In this document: in pieces, positions 38,144 to 54,055 of the stretch
Position numbering within the stretch: the stretch's first letter is position 1
Layout: each line of letters opens with the position of its first letter
Assembly (NCBI GenBank): GCA_019058315.1
Contig: JAHPZH010000002.1
Coordinates: 813,810 to 877,809, forward strand
DNA: 64,000 nucleotides
Source: Candidatus Helarchaeota archaeon
GTDB taxonomy: Archaea > Asgardarchaeota > Lokiarchaeia > Helarchaeales > RDOG01
Direction of reading: 5' to 3'
Position numbers and translations under genes: made by a program
The notes under the pieces: generated by a model
The model's database searches: none
What the model saw: the letters and a program-made list of their open reading frames with translations, nothing else
Told to the model about the DNA's origin: nothing

Positions 38144-38164
38144 TAATGTATCATTGATACATTA
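38144..38164. promoter_or_regulatory. Palindromic operator-like site TAATGTATCA-T-TGATACATTA
   Basis: Perfect 10-1-10 inverted repeat about 90 bp upstream of the roadblock gene; core recurs elsewhere. Confidence 0.7.
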
Positions 38165-38251
38165 TTATAGGATGCTTTTTAATTGTTAAATTAAGGAATT
38201 ATTCAAATATAAAAAGTAGTTTTTTTTTAGATCTTCGTCTGGCGGGAATAA

Positions 38252-38794
38252 ATGAAAGAATATGATGATTTAATTAAAAAAATTAAAGATTTAACAAAAA
38301 TAGGCTCGAAAAAATCTTCAAAAGCAGAAATATCTCCAAAGGAAGTAAAACTTGAAAATCTGTTAAAGAATTTTGAAGATAAGCATTTCATACCTATTTC
38401 AATGATCTTTACAGAAGAAGGATTAGTCGTATCAACAGGAATAGAACCGGAAAACAAATGGCTAAATGTGGATATTGTCGGAGCATTTGGTGCGGAATTT
38501 TTAAGAATAATTAATACCTTTATAGAAGAAGTTTTAGCAAAACCACACACTGATCCAGATAGTAGAATATCAGAATATGTCGGAGATTCAAAAAGAATAA
38601 CAAAAATTAAAACTAATTTTATTGAAACTGAAGTGGAAGGACAACCTATCGGAATTCTTTTCTGCCCTATCGAATCAATAGGTTTCTATTTAGCTATTAT
38701 TATAAACCCTGCTCTTAAAAATATCGAGCTTCTTCAAAAAATTAAAGATGATCTGCCAAAATTGATAGATGATATTAAAAATGTGTTTGAATAA
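38252..38794 (+). CDS. Roadblock/LC7-like domain protein
   Basis: 'SMIFTEEGLVVST...VDIVGAFGAEFL...FIETE...ILFCPI...YLAIII' helix/strand pattern. Confidence 0.7.
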   Translation: MKEYDDLIKKIKDLTKIGSKKSSKAEISPKEVKLENLLKNFEDKHFIPISMIFTEEGLVVSTGIEPENKWLNVDIVGAFGAEFLRIINTFIEEVLAKPHTDPDSRISEYVGDSKRITKIKTNFIETEVEGQPIGILFCPIESIGFYLAIIINPALKNIELLQKIKDDLPKLIDDIKNVFE

Positions 38795-38877
38795 TTAATT
38801 TCTCCATTTAATTTCCCTAAAAAAAATCTCCAACTCGCTCATTAATAAAAAATCACCTATAAATTCCACACATATTT

Positions 38878-38890
38878 ATATCACTGATCC
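38878..38890. promoter_or_regulatory. Degenerate copy of the palindrome (ATATCACTGATCC) upstream of the TrmB gene
   Basis: 2 mismatches to GTATCANTGATAC; about 115 bp upstream of the start. Confidence 0.45.
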
Positions 38891-39003
38891 TTATTTTTCA
38901 TTAAGTATTTAAAAAAGATAATATCAAAGGAGATATTCTCAAGGTTTAAGGCAGAGTGGGATGGTATTGTTTATAAACTCTTGAAATAAGAGGAATTGGG
39001 AAA

Positions 39004-39801
39004 TTGAAAGAAATTGTAGATAAATTGCATCAATTGGGGTTTAAAAAAAACGATGCAAAAGTATATTTTACATTATTACAACTAGGGGCATCTAATCCTT
39101 CAGAAATCTCAAAAAAAACAAACATTGTACGAGCTCGAGTATATGATTCTTTAAAAAGACTTGAAAAAAAGGGATTCGTTGAAAGAGAAGCAGTGTCTCG
39201 AGCACCTGAATATTCAGCAGTTAATCCAGATCTAGTTTTTTCGAACATAAAGGGAGAGTTGACTAATAAATTAAACATATCAGAACAATTATTAGAGTCC
39301 ATAAAGGAAAAAGTTAAAATTAAACCAGAAAAGGGGACATGGGCAATTAAAGGAATACCCAAAATCAAATCTAAAATTGAAAATATTATTTCAAACACAA
39401 ATAAAAGATTATTGGCTCTTATTACGCCTGATTACACTAAAACTTCTGAAAAATGGATTTATGATTTGCTTTTATTAAAAGCTAAATCTAAAATCGAAAT
39501 TAATATTGGGATGAAAATAAAAAAAGATAACTTGCCAGATGTTAAAAAATTAATAGCTAAAAAGATAAAAGTTTATAATTGGCATTTTACTGAGGAAATT
39601 CCAATAGGTCTGTATACCTCTGATTCTGAAAATACTCTACTTACGGTTATTGGTAGCTGGAAGAAAATATATGAGCATAATATCGGATTTCTAATCCAAG
39701 GATCTCCTGCTCAACATAAAGGTTTTGAATTCCTTATAGATTGGTTTTTTGCTTCTTGTCAAAACGGTGAGGAAAGGGTAAATGAACTAGAAGGTGAATG
39801 A
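39004..39801 (+). CDS. TrmB family transcriptional regulator
   Basis: wHTH 'LGFKKNDAKVYFTLL...SEISKKTNIVRARVYDSLKRLEKKGFV...PEYSAVNP' plus C-terminal effector-binding domain. Confidence 0.9.
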   Translation: MKEIVDKLHQLGFKKNDAKVYFTLLQLGASNPSEISKKTNIVRARVYDSLKRLEKKGFVEREAVSRAPEYSAVNPDLVFSNIKGELTNKLNISEQLLESIKEKVKIKPEKGTWAIKGIPKIKSKIENIISNTNKRLLALITPDYTKTSEKWIYDLLLLKAKSKIEINIGMKIKKDNLPDVKKLIAKKIKVYNWHFTEEIPIGLYTSDSENTLLTVIGSWKKIYEHNIGFLIQGSPAQHKGFEFLIDWFFASCQNGEERVNELEGE

Positions 39802-40321
39802 AATTTCTGAAATAGCTATTAAAATTGTTGTTGTTGGTGATGAGGAAGTAGGAAAAACTTCAATAATCCTTAAATATGTTAAAAATCGCTTTACTGATGA
39901 TTATAAACCTACTCTAGGCGCAGATTTTGCAGTAAAAGAACTGCGACTAAATGGAAAAATCGTAAAATTATATCTATGGGATATTGGAGGAAAAGATCAA
40001 TTTAAAAATCTGCATAAATATTACTATGAAGGTGCAAATTTATTCATTTTAGTTTTCGACCTAACAAAATTAGAAACCTTTGAGAATGCAATTAATGTTT
40101 GGATAGAAGACATAAGAAAAAATTACGATACTATACCAATTGTTTTAGTCGGTAATAAATTCGATTTGGAAAATGAAAGGCGTGTATCATTTGAACAAAT
40201 CAAAGATTTAACCTTTGATTTTATTCCTCTTTCTCTCGAAACTTCCGCAAAAACAGGTCTTAATATTGAAGATTTGTTTAACAAAATTATTGAATTTTTA
40301 AAGACCATAGAAATTGAATAA
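39794..40321 (+). CDS. Rab-like small GTPase
   Basis: G1 GDEEVGKT, G2 PTLGADF, G3 WDIGG, YYEGA, LVFDLT, G4 NKFD, G5 ETSAK; GTG start overlaps the TrmB 3' end by 8 nt. Confidence 0.92.
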   Translation: MNEISEIAIKIVVVGDEEVGKTSIILKYVKNRFTDDYKPTLGADFAVKELRLNGKIVKLYLWDIGGKDQFKNLHKYYYEGANLFILVFDLTKLETFENAINVWIEDIRKNYDTIPIVLVGNKFDLENERRVSFEQIKDLTFDFIPLSLETSAKTGLNIEDLFNKIIEFLKTIEIE

Positions 40322-40329
40322 AATAATTA

Positions 40330-40413
40330 AAAAATTTGAACAAATAAAGAATTTGATCAATAAGATACTTGAATAAATAAAAAATCTGATCAAATAAAAA
40401 ACGTGATCAGAAA
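40330..40413. repeat. Five degenerate 16-17-bp tandem repeats, consensus AAAAATTTGATCAAATA
   Basis: aaaaatttgaacaaata / aagaatttgatcaata / agatacttgaataaata / aaaaatctgatcaaata / aaaaacgtgatcagaaa. Confidence 0.75.
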
Positions 40414-40452
40414 GAAATAGATAAAATTATTCTAACCTGGAACGTAATTAAT

Positions 40453-41493
40453 TTGATTAAGGGAATAATAATTACATCAAGTTCTGGTGTATGCCTATTC
40501 TATAAAAGTTATGGCTGTGCCTTTGATAGTGAGATTCTTACCAATTTTTTGGTAGCAAATGATATATTCAGTGCTCAAATGATAGGAGAATCGATGTATA
40601 GAATTGAAATGAAGGAAAAAACCCAATTCGTTTTTGAAAAAGATACCCAAACTAAATTAATTTTCGTAATAATTGCGGATTTAGAAGACCAATTACATAA
40701 TCTCCAATTAAAATTGAAACATATAAAGTACGCAATTCTTTCAAATTTTCCAGAAATACATTACAGCGAATCTGATGCTCTACCTAAATATCATAAAATT
40801 CCCAATAAATTGAGAGTTGAAAAATTAATAGATCCAATAATTTTACCCCATTTTCCTTCTGGAAATTTAATAAATCTCATTAATTACTTTGGAATAAAAA
40901 ATTCTGCATACATTTTTTCAAGCCTTCTTGCTAAGCAGAATATTCTAATTTTTGATGGAAATCAACAATTAATAGAAGAATTAATTATGACTTTCCCTTT
41001 GTTAATTCCATTTCGTGAATTATTTATAATACAAAAAATTATCTCCGTAGATAAAATCGGACTTTTAGTTCCCTGGATTGAAAATTTCAATCTTTCTCAG
41101 GCTCCAAATTGCTGGTGGATAATAGGATCAAATAAAAATGATTTTAAAAAAACTGAGAAAAGTTCTATTACTTTTATAGATGTTGAAAACAAAAGAATTA
41201 TAAATGGGATAACCCCATCATTCTACGAACATAACTTAATTAAATCATTAAAAAATATTAAAGATCCTCAAATAGCACAATTAACATGGGCAAATAAAAT
41301 GCATGATCTTATAAATACCGTTAAGAAATTATTAAATTTCAATCCAATCAATAAAGAAGTCCTGAAATTACATGATCTTCAACCTTACTTTCTCCCCCTC
41401 GTTGAAAAAATTGTTCAGAACGATTTTTCGGTGAATTTAGAAATTGAAAAACACTACTTTACTTCCATACTAAATAAAATGTTTGGAGATTAA
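40453..41493 (+). CDS. Longin (uDENN) plus DENN-like domain protein, putative small-GTPase GEF
   Basis: Longin 'IIITSSSGVCLFYK...LIFVIIAD'; cDENN-like 'FSSLLAKQNILIF...LIPF...QAPNCWWIIG...FIDVENKRI'. Confidence 0.7.
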   Translation: MIKGIIITSSSGVCLFYKSYGCAFDSEILTNFLVANDIFSAQMIGESMYRIEMKEKTQFVFEKDTQTKLIFVIIADLEDQLHNLQLKLKHIKYAILSNFPEIHYSESDALPKYHKIPNKLRVEKLIDPIILPHFPSGNLINLINYFGIKNSAYIFSSLLAKQNILIFDGNQQLIEELIMTFPLLIPFRELFIIQKIISVDKIGLLVPWIENFNLSQAPNCWWIIGSNKNDFKKTEKSSITFIDVENKRIINGITPSFYEHNLIKSLKNIKDPQIAQLTWANKMHDLINTVKKLLNFNPINKEVLKLHDLQPYFLPLVEKIVQNDFSVNLEIEKHYFTSILNKMFGD

Positions 41494-41496
41494 TTC

Positions 41497-42168
41497 TTGG
41501 TTGATGCAACAATATTTTTAATTATTACTTCTGTATTTTCTTGTGCAATTTCTGGTGCTATAGCCGTTTTAATAATATTAAAGCGAGATCTCCGCCTTGA
41601 AACTGTTTTCTTTTCGCTTTTTTTGCTTGGGTCAGCTATTTATGTGTTCTTATATCTATTCTTGTTTGATGAGACATTAAAATACCTGCATTACCCTCTC
41701 CAAACGATATTCATTAGTCTTGCAACATTTGGATTCTTTATGTTTGCATTTAGTATGGATAATGAGGGAGAAAACATTAAAAAAATGGCAATTCCTTTAG
41801 CTATAATTTTATCAATTCTACCAGTGCTAAATTTTATCCTTACACCTTATACTTTTATTTTCGTTCCTTACGGTACTGAATTGAATGTAGAACCTTGGTT
41901 CCTAACTTCAGTTGCCTTAGTTACTATAATATTTCTCAGCTATGCAATGTTCATAATCCTGAAACTAAGCTTTAAATCTCCTTCCCTAGAAGTCCGGAAA
42001 AAAATAAAAATTATCCTTTTTTGCCTTGTATTAATGGTAGTTTTTGGAACCACCTTTTTAGCTATCATCCCCGTTATTACTCAAATACATCAAATAAAAC
42101 CTATAGGTTATTTCATCATTTCAGCATCAATGATCCTTATGACTTATGCATTCAGAAAAAGTGAATAA
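41497..42168 (+). CDS. Stand-alone 7-TM protein (HisKA_7TM-like sensor domain)
   Basis: Seven hydrophobic segments, no cytoplasmic output domain; starts 3 bp after the DENN gene. Confidence 0.65.
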   Translation: MVDATIFLIITSVFSCAISGAIAVLIILKRDLRLETVFFSLFLLGSAIYVFLYLFLFDETLKYLHYPLQTIFISLATFGFFMFAFSMDNEGENIKKMAIPLAIILSILPVLNFILTPYTFIFVPYGTELNVEPWFLTSVALVTIIFLSYAMFIILKLSFKSPSLEVRKKIKIILFCLVLMVVFGTTFLAIIPVITQIHQIKPIGYFIISASMILMTYAFRKSE

Positions 42169-42314
42169 AGAAAATAGCCAATATAATAGTTTAGAATTCA
42201 TTTTTAATTTAATTTTTGTAATTAATTTAACCTACTGACCTATTTTTAGTTTTAAATTTATTAATTTCTTCTTTTAATTTTTTATTTTTTTAAAAAATCA
42301 ATTATAAATATAAT

Positions 42315-42327
42315 GTTCCATTGATAC
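42315..42327. promoter_or_regulatory. Palindrome copy GTTCCATTGATAC upstream of the glycosyltransferase
   Basis: 2 mismatches to the core; flanks TAAT...AT match the 38144 site. Confidence 0.5.
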
Positions 42328-42429
42328 ATATTCATAAATTTGAATTATTGTTAACATATTCTAATTATTTTTTTGTTAAATACAAAATCTTTCCTTATCC
42401 ATATAAAAATAAAAAGGAGGATAAAAAAT

Positions 42430-43782
42430 TTGAAAAAAATAAAAATTATTTGGATGTCTCCAGAAATTGAAGATGAATATTCAAGTGGTGCAGCTAATCA
42501 TAATAGATTATTTGTGGAATACTTTAATAAACACCCAGATGTGGAAGAAGTAGCAGTGGTCAGATGGCCTGTTCCAGTAGCTGGAAAATTTTTGCCTCAA
42601 ATACAAAATTTTAATGGAATTAAATTATATACACCGCAAATTCACCTAAAATTAGATGAGGCACTTAAATCTTTCAAAAGGGAATCATATAAATTTTCAG
42701 AAAAAATAAAATTTGCATTTCTGCGATTGATCCTGAAATTAAAAGGAATGTCTACGTTTGATCCATCAACAATTAAAAAAGCTGGAGCTGTAGCCACATT
42801 TGCTGTTATGCTATTAACTTTCCAAAAACCATTCCCAAATCCCCTTCTGAAACAAATAGCTAAATGTATCGAACATTCTAAACCCGATATTATCCAAAAT
42901 CAAATGGAATTTATGGGGATATCGGGCTCATTGATCCGAGATAAAGTAAAAGGACACCTTATAACTCTCTACGAAATGGAAGGTGGACAAAGAGAAGTAG
43001 AAGAAGGAACTTTGGTTGGAGAAATTGCAAAAAGAAATAGTGAAGCTCTACAATGGGTTATAGAAAATGATAAAGTCGATAAATATATTCCAGTTTCGGA
43101 ATCTGTAGAAAAAAATCTGATTAAAAATGGAGTGCCTAAAAATAAGATTCAAACAATATATTCGCCTATAAGAATAGATAAGTTCCCTGTGGTGGATAGA
43201 GAAACAGCAAGGAGAAAATTGGGTCTCCCTAAAAACAAAAAAATCATTGTTTCGGTTGGACGAATGACAGGGGGGAAGAGATTCGAAGATCTGGTTGAAA
43301 TGCTAAGGAGATTCCCCGATGATGTAATTCTATATATCAAACAAAGTCGATGTATTTCTGATGATATCCTTGATACTTCTAAAGGGCTAATATCACTGAT
43401 AAAGAAATATAAATTAAATGATAGGGTAATTATTAACGACACACCACTACCATATGAGCAAATGGCATATGTATATCAAGCTGCGGATGTTGGGGTATAC
43501 CCATTTCTAGATGAACCGTTTGGGATGTGCGTCGCTGAAATTATGGCGTGTGCTAGACCAGTAATTGTTTATGATAGCGGATATCTTCCAAATTTTATAA
43601 ATAAAAATGGCTTCGTTGTTAAACCCTTAGATATTGAGGATCTATATCAAAAAACTAAATATCTGCTAGAAGATGGAATAGTAGTAAAGGAAATGGGCGA
43701 AAAAGGTAGAGAATTAGCTCAAAAATACGATATTAATATACTTGGAGAAAAATTACTTGATTTATATAAAGAATTTATGTAA
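42430..43782 (+). CDS. Glycosyltransferase family 4 (GT-B)
   Basis: 'PVSESV', 'SVGRM...KRFEDL', 'EPFGMCVAEIMAC'; TTG at 42430 after GGAGG is a better start than 42373. Confidence 0.88.
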   Translation: MKKIKIIWMSPEIEDEYSSGAANHNRLFVEYFNKHPDVEEVAVVRWPVPVAGKFLPQIQNFNGIKLYTPQIHLKLDEALKSFKRESYKFSEKIKFAFLRLILKLKGMSTFDPSTIKKAGAVATFAVMLLTFQKPFPNPLLKQIAKCIEHSKPDIIQNQMEFMGISGSLIRDKVKGHLITLYEMEGGQREVEEGTLVGEIAKRNSEALQWVIENDKVDKYIPVSESVEKNLIKNGVPKNKIQTIYSPIRIDKFPVVDRETARRKLGLPKNKKIIVSVGRMTGGKRFEDLVEMLRRFPDDVILYIKQSRCISDDILDTSKGLISLIKKYKLNDRVIINDTPLPYEQMAYVYQAADVGVYPFLDEPFGMCVAEIMACARPVIVYDSGYLPNFINKNGFVVKPLDIEDLYQKTKYLLEDGIVVKEMGEKGRELAQKYDINILGEKLLDLYKEFM

Positions 43783-43810: not shown

Positions 43811-44719
43811 ATGAGTCTAATTTTGGCTATAATTTTTGGTCTACTAGCTTATGCAGCATTAAATATCGGAATGGTTCTAGAAAAAAAAGGCGCAAGTACA
43901 CTACCACAAATTGAAAACACTTCTGCTCTAGATAACCTTAAAAATTTTCTTGGTTGTAAAATCTGGGTAATTGGGGCATTAATAACTTTTTCACAGGTAT
44001 TTCTCTTAATGATTGCTTTAACAATGGCTCCTCTATCATTAATCTCTCCCCTTTTCGGATTCGGTCTCGTTGTGCTGGCGTTCTTTTCGAAACTATATTT
44101 AAACGAAGATATAAATAAAATAGAATATGCAGGTATAAGCATTACAATTTTCGGGATTATCTTATTAGGATTGTTTTCTAATCCTAATGAAATAACTTAT
44201 ACAGTAAATGAAATTGCTGGATTATATTTTTCCCCTTTTTCTTTTATCTACTTTATAAGTATGATAATTTTTACGATAATACTTTGTATCTATAGTATCT
44301 TAAATAATTATAAATTGGCAGCTATCATTTTCGGGTTTGCTAGCGGAATCGCAGGAGCTTTCGGAAATATTTTTATGAAAGGTGTATCTTCTGGTGTCGG
44401 TCAATTTACACTAGAATCAACTATAATTAATATACTTTGGATTTTGATGCTAATTTTCTCATTTATGGGAAGTGGGGTTTCAATGATGTTACTCCAGATG
44501 GGATTTCAAAAAGGAAGAGCGGTTCTAGTGGCACCGATTTATTCTATCATCGCTATGCTCTATCCAACAATCAGCGGTATCATCATTCTTGGAGAATGGG
44601 CTGGACAGTTGTTCCTTAATATACTAATCCAATCTACTGGGATAATTATTATTGTATTAGGAATTATTATCTTGTCTTTCTATAATGAATTGAAAAAAGT
44701 AAAATCCGAAGAGTCTTGA
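43811..44719 (+). CDS. DMT-superfamily transporter (NIPA/Mg2+-transporter-like)
   Basis: 9 TM; 'GMVLEKKG', 'APLSLISPL', 'LQMGFQKGRAVLVAP', 'GIIILGE'. Confidence 0.75.
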   Translation: MSLILAIIFGLLAYAALNIGMVLEKKGASTLPQIENTSALDNLKNFLGCKIWVIGALITFSQVFLLMIALTMAPLSLISPLFGFGLVVLAFFSKLYLNEDINKIEYAGISITIFGIILLGLFSNPNEITYTVNEIAGLYFSPFSFIYFISMIIFTIILCIYSILNNYKLAAIIFGFASGIAGAFGNIFMKGVSSGVGQFTLESTIINILWILMLIFSFMGSGVSMMLLQMGFQKGRAVLVAPIYSIIAMLYPTISGIIILGEWAGQLFLNILIQSTGIIIIVLGIIILSFYNELKKVKSEES

Positions 44720-51889: not shown

Positions 51890-51965
51890 AAAAACTCTCC
51901 TTTTTTTATATATTTTTAATATTTGTATAGTAACTAATTATTCTTGATACACTTAAAATATTTTT

Positions 51966-52615: not shown

Positions 52616-54055
52616 TTAAGAAAAAATTATTAGAGCAAGTATAAATAAAATTGAAATTAATAGAATAATAAAATAAAGATTAATTCTGTTTTTCTGACTT
52701 TTTTGTATATTATAAAGTCTTTTTATTAATATATACGCTCCTTCCACTGACGACTTATCAAACCTTAATTGAAATCCTGAATTATCTTTTAAAACTAGGG
52801 GATTATAGTTATGCCACCTTATTAAATTATCAATTCTATCTGTTCCTAGTAAATTTACACCCTTATCCATTACATCAAATAATGTTGTTAGTTCATTTGT
52901 ACTCCAGGTTCGAATTACCTTATGTCTAGAAATTAATTGATCAATTTTTTCGTGTGAAAGTGTAAATTTATGAATATTTGCATATGTATTGATAAAAACC
53001 CGAGTTGGATATTTATTAATCAAATTCGGGGAAACATCCACAAATGCCAAGCTTTTTAGATTTTTATCATATTCTTCCTTAAATGGAGCAATTCTTGAAA
53101 TATTCTCTGTATTTCCACCAGATAGAACGAAAATAAATTTATCTTTTAAATCATCTAGAGTTGGCCATTGGTTATTCTGCATATACTCATAAGGTGTATA
53201 AAGTCTATTCTCGAAGTATCTCTTAATTAAATCATCAAGTCTATTTGAGAAGGATTTCTCTTTACTATTGAGTTTTTTCGAAATAATATGCTTCAAATCA
53301 AGATAAATAACAATTGGTTCATGATTTTTGTTTAAATCGGACCAGACTTTAACTGCCTCAAACCATTCCCTTAAGGTAATTCTCTCTCGTTTATTATACC
53401 ATAAATGATAGACAAAAAATTCTTTGATGTTTTCTTGTTTTGAAGAAGAATATTTCTCCCTTATTGTCATAATTGGCTTTTTTATAACATCTTCATGCAC
53501 ATCAAATTCTAAACCCCTCGCTTTACCATCATCTAATTGAAATTTTATTGATTCAAATCTCCAAACATTATGTCTTCTCTTAAATCCTTGATTTTCTGTG
53601 AGTGTTGAAAAAACTTTATTCAAATAAATCAATCTATCCTTATATTCCATGATAAAAATATCAAAATAATTATAGAAAAGTTCCTTCTTTTGTTTGGTCA
53701 CTTTTTTTAAAAGAATTCCTTTTCTATGTGTTGTAAAAAGATCCTTAATAAGTTCCAAACGTTTTTTAGCGTCCTCTTCATTTAATATCTCATTAAACTT
53801 GTCCATAAATTGAAGATATTCTACACTGGAATAAATTTTATCTAATCCTGTCTGAACTTTCTTTTCTATCATTAAATCTGAAAGTAATTTTCTATATATC
53901 TTATAAAATCCCCCATCCTTATACTCTGGCCAATACCTCCTCTCATATGAATTATGTGAAGTAATACATTGATATTTGTTAAAATTTGTTGGTATTTTTA
54001 ATTCTCTCCTTTTTTTAATTATAAAAAATCCTCTTATTAAACTACAAAACTTCAC
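52616..54055 (-). CDS. Phosphoinositide-specific phospholipase C-like protein with C-terminal TM anchor
   Basis: 'SHNSY', 'QLD.G.ARGLEFDVH', 'HEPIVIYLDLK', 'WPTLDDLKDKFIFVL', 'IRTW', 'GVNLLGTD'. Confidence 0.8.
   Translation of the reverse strand: MKFCSLIRGFFIIKKRRELKIPTNFNKYQCITSHNSYERRYWPEYKDGGFYKIYRKLLSDLMIEKKVQTGLDKIYSSVEYLQFMDKFNEILNEEDAKKRLELIKDLFTTHRKGILLKKVTKQKKELFYNYFDIFIMEYKDRLIYLNKVFSTLTENQGFKRRHNVWRFESIKFQLDDGKARGLEFDVHEDVIKKPIMTIREKYSSSKQENIKEFFVYHLWYNKRERITLREWFEAVKVWSDLNKNHEPIVIYLDLKHIISKKLNSKEKSFSNRLDDLIKRYFENRLYTPYEYMQNNQWPTLDDLKDKFIFVLSGGNTENISRIAPFKEEYDKNLKSLAFVDVSPNLINKYPTRVFINTYANIHKFTLSHEKIDQLISRHKVIRTWSTNELTTLFDVMDKGVNLLGTDRIDNLIRWHNYNPLVLKDNSGFQLRFDKSSVEGAYILIKRLYNIQKSQKNRINLYFIILLISILFILALIIFS

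Follow-up and report, generated by a model that had tools for sequence, protein, structure and literature searches.

A merged TrmB-GTPase and 7TM-glycosyltransferase locus in a Helarchaeota archaeon as a candidate for receptor-coupled small-GTPase signalling

Asgard archaea encode dozens of eukaryote-like small GTPases, and for almost none of them can a regulator, an input or an output be named. Here we examined one such GTPase gene and its neighbours in a stretch of 64,000 nucleotides (nt) from a Candidatus Helarchaeota archaeon (GenBank assembly GCA_019058315.1, contig JAHPZH010000002.1, positions 813,810 to 877,809 of the forward strand), referred to below as the window, whose own numbering is used throughout. 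An earlier note, made from the sequence alone, had described at this locus five co-oriented genes for a roadblock protein, a TrmB regulator, a Rab-like GTPase, a longin-DENN protein and a seven-transmembrane (7TM) protein, and had read them as one receptor-like signalling module. The five plus-strand open reading frames (ORFs) were confirmed at the coordinates given in Table 1, including the 8-nt overlap between the end of the TrmB gene and the start of the GTPase gene (39794-39801) and the 3-nt spacing between the stop of the DENN-like gene and the start of the 7TM gene. Co-oriented genes for a GT4-family glycosyltransferase and a NIPA/DMT-type transporter follow 3' of the 7TM gene. The five identities were upheld at the level of family or fold, with unequal support: Pfam for TrmB, Pfam and PDB for the GTPase, a longin fold and a sequence profile of the DENN core for the DENN-like protein, the fold for the 7TM protein, and hhalign for the roadblock-like protein. 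We regard the locus as a testable, unproven candidate for receptor-coupled small-GTPase signalling in archaea.

Table 1. Genes, protein domains and DNA elements of the locus, in window coordinates.
Feature	Position	Strand	Basis or context
Perfect 21-nt palindrome, core TGTATCAtTGATACA at 38147-38161	38144-38164		Follows closely on an A/T-rich TATA-like stretch; 105 nt ahead of the roadblock-like gene
Roadblock-like protein, 180 aa	38252-38794	+	hhalign, ESM features
Degenerate palindrome copy, 3 mismatches	38877-38891		Read from the sequence; 113 nt ahead of the TrmB gene
TrmB-family winged-helix regulator, 265 aa	39004-39801	+	PF01978, E 7e-21
Rab-like small GTPase, 175 aa	39794-40321	+	Ras family, E 7.5e-47
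17-bp tandem array, 4.9 copies, unit TAAAAAATTTGATCAAA, TGATCA palindromic cores	40328-40409		Tandem Repeats Finder; gap between the GTPase and DENN-like genes
DENN-like protein, 346 aa	40453-41493	+	
Longin (uDENN-type) domain, residues 1-105	40453-40767	+	AlphaFold2 and Foldseek
DENN-core signature, residues 136-195	40858-41037	+	Sequence profile
DENN-like C-terminal tail, motif Y-x-T-x-x-[LV]-[KN]-x-x-F-G	41434-41490	+	Family alignment
Stand-alone HisKA_7TM-type seven-helix protein, 223 aa	41497-42168	+	AlphaFold2, atlas shape search
Palindrome copy, 2 mismatches	42314-42328		Directly after a TATA-like stretch, ~100 nt upstream of GT4
GT4-family (Glycos_transf_1) glycosyltransferase	42430-43782	+	PF00534, E 1e-24
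NIPA/DMT-type membrane transporter	43811-44719	+	PF05653, E 1e-15; 29 nt after GT4

The TrmB-GTPase-DENN-7TM-GT4 order was also found in three other assemblies (L021, L022 and L023, two of them labelled Candidatus Helarchaeota), with protein identities of 46-79% and with the 8-nt TrmB/GTPase overlap kept in all three; in L022 and L023 the NIPA gene is added after GT4. A fifth locus is a cut contig that carries the 3' end of the DENN-like gene, the 7TM gene and GT4, and DNA contigs matched to the region showed that near-identical strains are present in other sediment studies; among public sequencing runs, no RNA data set was listed as containing it. Since the same order recurs in other assemblies, the arrangement is not a matter of chance. 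The expectation that gene order would be conserved in relatives held for four of the five genes and failed for the roadblock-like gene, which is missing from all three complete relatives. Pfam and NCBIfam scans gave no match for the 180-aa protein encoded by this gene, and the 27 Robl_LC7 matches of the genome do not include it; a single-sequence PDB search with it gave no matches, and a word-indexed search of 5.8 billion proteins returned a single homologue. It aligned with the genome's own Robl_LC7 family by hhalign over its first half only (residues 28-94; 83.5% probability, E 8e-6), and its ESM features lay at 0.89-0.90 to MAPKK1_Int and Robl_LC7 clusters. The roadblock-like gene is a lineage-specific accessory.

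The TrmB protein has an N-terminal winged helix-turn-helix that scored 74 bits against the PF01978 cut-off of 25.6. A C-terminal sugar-binding effector domain was not recognised, as the NCBIfam TrmBL1/TrmB models cover just residues 2-138 or 2-188 and scored 52-68 bits against cut-offs of 600-650, and the ligand-responsive role that the earlier note gives for TrmB proteins is not supported for this one. Matches to the window TrmB at E <=1e-8 were obtained in 272 of 301 Asgard genomes, those of the best-scoring loci being full-length, and an orthologous Rab-like GTPase gene lies directly 3' of it in 27 of the 29 best loci, which come from many Asgard families. These pairs (loci L059-L086, from 27 Asgard genomes) often overlap by 4-8 nt and have no DENN or 7TM gene nearby, and no consistent roadblock or longin gene was found upstream of them. 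TrmB and the GTPase are thus a deeply conserved, phylum-wide Asgard gene pair, and adjacency kept across so many families is hard to explain without a joint function of the two proteins. A paper describing an Asgard pair of TrmB and small GTPase was not found in our literature search. The genome also holds a paralogue of the TrmB orthogroup (C1:26828-27715, minus strand, 295 aa) that lacks the helix-turn-helix and consists of the C-terminal domain only (profile positions 127-263, E 1.5e-45).

The GTPase found its best PDB matches among Rabs throughout (Rab5, Rab23 and Rab35, ~1e-32). Its G1-G5 motifs are intact, with GDEEVGKT, the switch-I T, WDIGG, NKFD and SAK kept in four orthologues, and no C-terminal Cys prenylation motif was found, the protein ending ...TIEIE with no cysteine. 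The residue after DxxG, at the position of the catalytic Gln, is K in the window protein and K, S and Q in three orthologues; compared with this K, K, S, Q of the DENN-linked clade, it is Q in 22 of the 27 TrmB-linked orthologues elsewhere, a comparison between small samples of related sequences that hints at a change in hydrolysis regime upon arrival of the DENN gene. In the whole genome, 92 Ras-like ORFs, 17 longin-type ORFs and the Robl_LC7 matches mentioned above were counted, and longin-GTPase fusions are encoded, for example, at C3:143156-144130, C3:142046-143026, C6:111365-112255 and C5:543256-544224.

The other half of the locus has a different distribution. Distant homologues of the 7TM protein (25-39% identity) were found within the same taxonomic order only, in three sister-family reference genomes and several metagenome contigs, where they are accompanied by a TrmB-family gene (here called TrmB') and by GT4, without a GTPase or DENN gene. 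These GTPase-free cassettes are arranged as TrmB'-7TM-GT4, as 7TM-GT4-TrmB', or with GT4 divergent from TrmB'-7TM. In each of the 10 loci examined, GT4 is a direct or close neighbour of the 7TM gene, often with 4-nt overlaps, so that the reading of the locus as a five-gene module left out the most constant partner of the 7TM protein as well as the cassettes that do without GTPase and DENN. The start of the window GT4 gene was placed at 42430 by an upstream AGGAGG and by the N-termini of homologues, and the best NCBIfam and PDB relatives of the enzyme are MshA, BshA, GlgA-like enzymes and glycolipid synthases, all under equivalog cut-offs. In two of the GTPase-free cassettes, a class I S-adenosylmethionine (SAM) methyltransferase precedes the TrmB'/7TM/GT4 set (L049:2199-3197 and L051:4907-5905).

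When the two types of regulator were compared, the window TrmB showed 25% identity to the cassette TrmB' (E 4e-30), against E values down to 3e-55 with TrmBs of distant Asgard families. Because the window TrmB is closer to the TrmBs of distant families than to TrmB', and because it is paired with the GTPase elsewhere, the locus is a merger, in which the phylum-wide TrmB-GTPase pair together with a DENN gene stands in place of TrmB' in an order-specific TrmB'-7TM-GT4 cassette, and the cassette is older than the merged form. The loci with GTPase and DENN group together in the trees of both GT4 (99/99) and the 7TM protein (84/98), so that a single event suffices to account for them; this merged clade comprises five loci, four of them complete, with the DENN gene at the seam.

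At the seam itself, a short peptide appears to have been carried over. The TrmB' proteins of the GTPase-free cassettes extend 15-18 residues beyond the end of the window TrmB (...ELEGE) and finish Y-P-T-x-K-L-K-S-x-F-G, and the DENN-like proteins finish (E)-x-Y-F-T-x-x-L-K/N-x-x-F-G. Across seven members of the DENN family, Y335, F336 and G345 of this tail are invariant and position 344 is F or L, and the same motif ends the TrmB' of the GTPase-free cassettes L046 and L051; it marks the C-terminus of whichever protein is encoded directly upstream of the 7TM gene. The strict tail pattern had three background matches in the 1.88 million residues of the genome's ORFs, and with a looser pattern anchored at the C-terminus the DENN-like protein was the sole match among 6356 ORFs. 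The conserved tail codons differ synonymously, which indicates selection on the peptide. There is moderate evidence that the tail is shared between TrmB' and the DENN-like protein, and because tests with short hidden Markov models (HMMs) are weak, this claim rests on the position-anchored pattern count.

The history of the block downstream of the GTPase gene could be followed in L023. Identity between the window and L023 is 79% for TrmB, 77% for the GTPase and 87% for NIPA, against 48% for DENN, 38% for 7TM and 52% for GT4. At the left border of the divergent block (L023:7856-7974) lies a 119-nt remnant of the 5' end of a window-type DENN gene, with 85% DNA identity, and at the right border (L023:11731-11916) a remnant of the 3' end of a window-type GT4 gene, overlapped by an 84-aa ORF called at L023 11662-11916. 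The contrast in identity together with these border remnants indicates that DENN-7TM-GT4 was replaced as one block, while TrmB-GTPase was left in place.

The DENN-like protein encoded between the GTPase and 7TM genes begins with a longin domain, which AlphaFold2 (AF2) modelled with a predicted local distance difference test (pLDDT) score of 80-90 over residues 1-100. Foldseek matched this domain to TRAPP Bet5/Trs23, AP sigma and Mon1-Ccz1 (E 1.3e-5 to 1e-4), and a weak Pfam match to Fuz_longin_1 was obtained (E 0.014). The AF2 alignment had 18 rows and yielded a model of the longin part only; the C-terminal two thirds stayed unmodelled because only five full-length members of the family were found, in an exhaustive profile search of 1.8 billion representatives. 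For this C-terminal part, a profile of the family alone matched DENND10 (E 0.052) and SMCR8 (E 0.15) in the PDB through the same motif, at the start of their DENN domains, and a 17-sequence Asgard profile, to which distant homologues from genome scans had been added, gave E 6e-5 for SMCR8 and E 7.9e-4 for DENND10, and these two proteins make up the top three of its five PDB matches. SMCR8 belongs to the C9orf72-SMCR8-WDR41 complex, a GTPase-activating protein (GAP) complex, and DENND10, a protein of Commander, is with 357 aa close to the window protein in length. ESM features placed the DENN-like protein at 0.78-0.83 to Folliculin, C9orf72 and SMCR8 clusters, which we take as a lead only; a Pfam scan of the distant Asgard DENN-like ORFs gave one weak C9orf72-like match only, a single-sequence PDB search with the window protein gave no matches, and shape searches of its model against the atlas and the PDB returned longins only. 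For the 346-aa protein, support for DENN homology comes only from sequence profiles; of the fold foreseen for this ORF, the longin part was modelled with confidence, and the DENN region came out at pLDDT below 50. A cluster of Thorarchaeota proteins of 425 aa, 52% of them with a TrmB domain, showed weak structural similarity to the longin-DENN model (TM 0.42) and may, as a lead only, represent a TrmB-longin fusion.

The earlier note had taken it for granted that the DENN-like protein works as an exchange factor for guanine nucleotides (GEF), and its closest solved relatives by sequence, one of them a subunit of a GAP complex, do not bear this out. GAP longins of FLCN, SMCR8 and NPRL2 are marked by a GP motif just before the second longin beta strand and by an arginine, and GAP-type Asgard longins have been discussed (PMC12290439). 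The GP motif and the longin arginine finger of SMCR8 and FLCN-FNIP are not found in the window protein: the loop reads S-G-V/I, the conserved G12 preceding V or I in each of the five orthologues, and no Arg occupies a common position within residues 1-105 across these five. The GP motif is present in the distant Asgard homologues L025, L026 and L039. An FLCN-type GAP reading, raised by the ESM features, was accordingly lowered, and unlike in the FLCN-FNIP and SMCR8-type systems no partner longin subunit was identified for the window protein. We infer a candidate regulator only, whose direction could be that of a GEF or of a GAP.

The 7TM protein has seven hydrophobic segments, and its K/R residues (13 inside, 2 outside) predict a topology with the N-terminus outside and the C-terminus inside. 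Its AF2 model reached pLDDT 91.4 and a predicted template modelling (pTM) score of 0.88. In an atlas shape search the model matched HisKA_7TM clusters at template modelling (TM) scores of 0.76-0.81, with PF16927 present in 75-100% of the cluster members, and a Foldseek search of the PDB returned the transmembrane domains of class C G-protein-coupled receptors from E 2e-4. With the HisKA_7TM (PF16927) modules it shares the seven-helix bundle and an extracellular loop-2 hairpin; most of the matched clusters are fused to kinase, PAS, GGDEF/EAL or DUF835 domains, whereas the window protein stands alone, has no cytoplasmic output domain in its model, and gave no Pfam match at E up to 1, nor did a genome scan with PF16927 find anything at this gene. 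The view of it as a 7TM sensor with no output domain was therefore sustained, in that it is a stand-alone copy of a sensor module fused elsewhere to kinase, PAS or GGDEF/EAL domains. Its invariant motifs HYPLQ, PYGYELxIEPWF and KPIGY lie on the outer face. A 386-aa protein encoded 6.2 kb upstream of the window (C5:807607-808767) has several membrane helices in its N-terminal part and, judged by eye, a roadblock- or longin-like C-terminus. It was considered as specific support for a 7TM link and set aside, since no homology of its membrane part to the 7TM protein was seen (hhalign 0.3%) and Pfam found nothing in it.

A predicted complex of the 7TM protein with residues 256-346 of the DENN-like protein reached an interaction prediction score from aligned errors (ipSAE) of 0.50, against 0.02 for the best control, so that the pairing suggested by the earlier note gave a weak pass only. 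This mark is reached by 58 of 80 solved complexes and by 2 of 110 mismatched pairs, with passes at <=0.60 comprising only 7 of the 80 solved complexes and both of the mismatches that passed, and these calibration counts hold only roughly here since alignments of our own making were used. The runs shared at least 98% of their contacts, and the partner was modelled at pLDDT of at least 58. A link between the DENN-like and 7TM proteins is backed by the shared tail motif, by the co-exchange of their genes and, weakly, by the predicted complex.

The palindrome TGTATCAnTGATACA occurs in five copies in the window, against 0.44 expected, and all five are intergenic; in the 5.8-Mb genome only six copies were found at <=1 mismatch, four of them in the window. 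The copy at 38877 lies within a stretch that aligns at 80.6% with L023 6409-7857, where a 2-mismatch copy is found at L023 6419, and copies upstream of GT4 occupy the matching position in L021 (10170), L022 (7095) and L054 (1063). Related copies are found upstream of TrmB and GT4 in the orthologous loci, and in matching places in the GTPase-free loci too. The palindrome is a candidate TrmB-type operator. The window TrmB shares the N-terminal winged helix PF01978 with the Thermococcales regulators TrmB, TrmBL1 and TrmBL2, and its candidate operator, palindromic with half-sites TATCA/TGATA and placed beside the TATA box, resembles the glycolytic motif TATCAC-N5-GTGATA. The window orthogroup differs from the Thermococcales proteins in aligning over residues 2-138 or 2-188 only and in being coupled to a GTPase gene across Asgard archaea. 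Further intergenic copies stand upstream of other genes, at 51965, 54172 and 58138 in the window and at C5:884006 and C5:916602 outside it. One of the genes with an upstream palindrome encodes a PI-PLC-type phospholipase (52616-54055, minus strand; PF16670, E 1e-12), and the distribution suggests a small local regulon that may be tied to membrane lipid or glycolipid remodelling.

On this evidence we propose that the locus works as a hybrid of two units, in which a tail-docked DENN-like protein would link the 7TM protein to the GTPase and TrmB, a reading whose chances we put at about even. The first unit is a TrmB-family regulator and its overlapping Rab-like GTPase, kept adjacent across most Asgard lineages. 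The second is an order-specific TrmB' with a stand-alone HisKA_7TM-type sensor module and GT4, with palindromic candidate operators beside TATA-like boxes, its named relatives being labelled Helarchaeota. In one clade, the first unit with a longin-DENN gene would have replaced TrmB', so that the last 15-18 TrmB' codons now end the DENN-like protein. The protein encoded directly upstream of the 7TM gene would dock on the 7TM protein at the membrane via this tail; in the old cassette the docking partner would be the repressor TrmB', and in the window locus the DENN-like protein. The DENN-like protein would then set the nucleotide state of the Rab-like GTPase, as GEF or GAP, and the GTPase would act with its old partner TrmB, which may bind the palindromes and control the operon, the GT4-NIPA unit and some nearby promoters. 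That all of this amounts to a true pathway in an archaeon from receptor through DENN-type regulator and small GTPase to TrmB transcription, with natural 'before' and 'after' versions, we consider unlikely. If it were true, coupling of receptor, small GTPase and transcription would need no eukaryotic complexity. Should the chain fail, the locus would remain a clear example of two operons merged through an in-frame seam, and of a cassette of surface-glycan type exchanged among close relatives. Genome layout rarely helps to assign partners to Asgard GTPases (Tran et al., PMC10933270), and this locus gives one GTPase four candidate partners, namely the longin-DENN protein as regulator, the 7TM protein as membrane input, TrmB with its palindromes as output and GT4 as target; the relatives without GTPase and DENN genes serve as natural controls.

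Several observations weigh against the hybrid model. Gene content and order, folds, families, conservation, the seam, the exchange of the block and the distribution of the operator copies are established here; contacts between the proteins, the direction of the enzymatic effect and the GTPase-to-TrmB step are all inferred. The direction of change, gain rather than loss, depends on a midpoint root on a long branch. As to the tail, 3 of 7 DENN tails show the strict pattern, as do 2 of 3 TrmB' tails, and the remainder are partial, the similarity is short (hhalign E 0.01), and when the genome was searched with a TrmB'-tail HMM, weak as such short models are, the DENN-like protein was not among the top matches. 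The co-exchange of DENN, 7TM and GT4 may merely mirror where recombination broke, and by the tool's calibration a pass as weak as that of the predicted complex is wrong more often than right unless the guess was already likely. The DENN assignment concerns a narrow family, with five loci carrying the gene; residues 149-346 were modelled below pLDDT 50 with just 5-6 sequences covering them, and a whole-genome scan with Pfam DENN PF02141 gave no match. Finally, conservation of the palindrome does not extend to the DNA upstream of TrmB in distant Asgard lineages, where 3 of 29 loci have it at 3 mismatches, so the operator is assigned to TrmB by position only.

The alternative that survives best is that the genes are merely transcribed together, the Rab-like GTPase and DENN forming a self-contained traffic-like switch that shares a TrmB-repressed unit with an unrelated 7TM/glycosyltransferase envelope cassette and physically contacts neither the 7TM protein nor TrmB. 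TrmB-type regulators usually control adjoining genes, and the weak pass of the predicted 7TM-DENN complex fits such a reading. The GTPase and DENN genes are moreover separated in the window by a 131-nt gap with the repeat array; no such gap is present in L021 (8-nt overlap), L022 (3 nt) or L023, which makes the array a lineage-specific insertion, possibly an internal promoter or protein-binding site. GTPase-DENN neighbours without a 7TM gene or TrmB exist in other Asgard genomes (L029 and L038), and such an operon is in print (10.1101/2020.10.19.343400). However, mere co-transcription sits poorly with the adjacency of TrmB and GTPase, often overlapping, across many Asgard families, with a tail motif that tracks the position upstream of the 7TM gene, with a DENN gene that travels with 7TM-GT4 and not with the GTPase, and with the loss of the catalytic Gln coinciding with DENN linkage, and we hold it to be rather unlikely.

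Quite unlikely, in our view, is a glycosylation machine, in which the 7TM protein would be no sensor but the membrane subunit or anchor of GT4 in the synthesis of glycolipids or surface glycans. The complex would be recruited or switched by the DENN-like protein and the GTPase, and TrmB would only set expression. Such a machine would suit the constancy of the 7TM and GT4 pair, the inositol-phosphate and glycolipid glycosyltransferases among the nearest characterised relatives of GT4, the methyltransferase that joins the cassette in L049 and L051, and the palindrome shared with the nearby PI-PLC gene. It would also suit a block that is hypervariable and swapped between close relatives, like many surface-glycan loci. 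But what the 7TM fold resembles are the sensor modules found in histidine kinases and GGDEF/EAL proteins, not known partners of glycosyltransferases, and the conserved 7TM motifs point outward, whereas GT4 enzymes act in the cytoplasm.

The linear cascade of the earlier note, from 7TM sensor through DENN GEF to Rab-like GTPase, with roadblock acting on the GTPase and the GTPase controlling a ligand-responsive TrmB, has the same gene content, a roadblock-like gene that has the best palindrome copy and lies within the unit both here and in the near-identical strains of other studies, and the activity of classic DENN proteins as Rab GEFs (PMC3521125) in its favour, but is very improbable given a nearly orphan roadblock gene missing from all three complete relatives, closest solved DENN relatives of which SMCR8 acts in a GAP complex and DENND10 is not a proven GEF (PMC12290439), a TrmB without a recognised sugar-binding domain, and the omission of GT4.

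With regard to known systems, an operon in which a LAMTOR1-like roadblock protein is encoded together with a Rab-like GTPase and a DENN protein, present in most Asgard lineages, was published in 2020 and proposed as a GTPase-regulator module resembling FLCN/Ragulator (Liu et al., 10.1101/2020.10.19.343400). The window is like it in having a Rab-like GTPase beside a longin-DENN protein with a roadblock-superfamily gene nearby, and unlike it in having TrmB between the roadblock and GTPase genes, a roadblock gene that is not conserved, and a DENN gene tied to a 7TM sensor module and GT4. The togetherness of the three genes fails here, as the GTPase and DENN are kept in L021, L022 and L023 without the roadblock-like gene. 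TrmB and the 7TM protein are not mentioned in the text of that paper (10.1101/2020.10.19.343400). Among bacteria, the conservons of actinobacteria (CvnA-D, Mfp) are the established receptor-like small-GTPase analogue (PMC13621833, PMC13343842, PMC11343762). The likeness is one of analogy and not of homology: CvnA has a histidine-kinase-like output and the GEF belongs to the CvnC/MfpC family, whereas the window combines a sensor without an output domain and a longin-DENN regulator with a transcription factor and a glycosyltransferase in one unit, and Pfam and NCBIfam scans of the five genes found neither a CvnA-type kinase-like sensor nor a CvnC-type GEF family. A GEF-GTPase pair as part of a receptor analogue, put forward in the earlier note, is hence not new in kind, since the Asgard operon (10.1101/2020.10.19.343400) and the conservons (PMC13621833) are in print. 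What appears to be new here is that two units merged, that a tail passed from one protein to another, that a block was exchanged and that the Gln was lost.

Two minus-strand ORFs run antisense wholly within the roadblock-like and TrmB genes, at 38227-38550 (107 aa) and 39030-39398 (122 aa), and both are most likely spurious.

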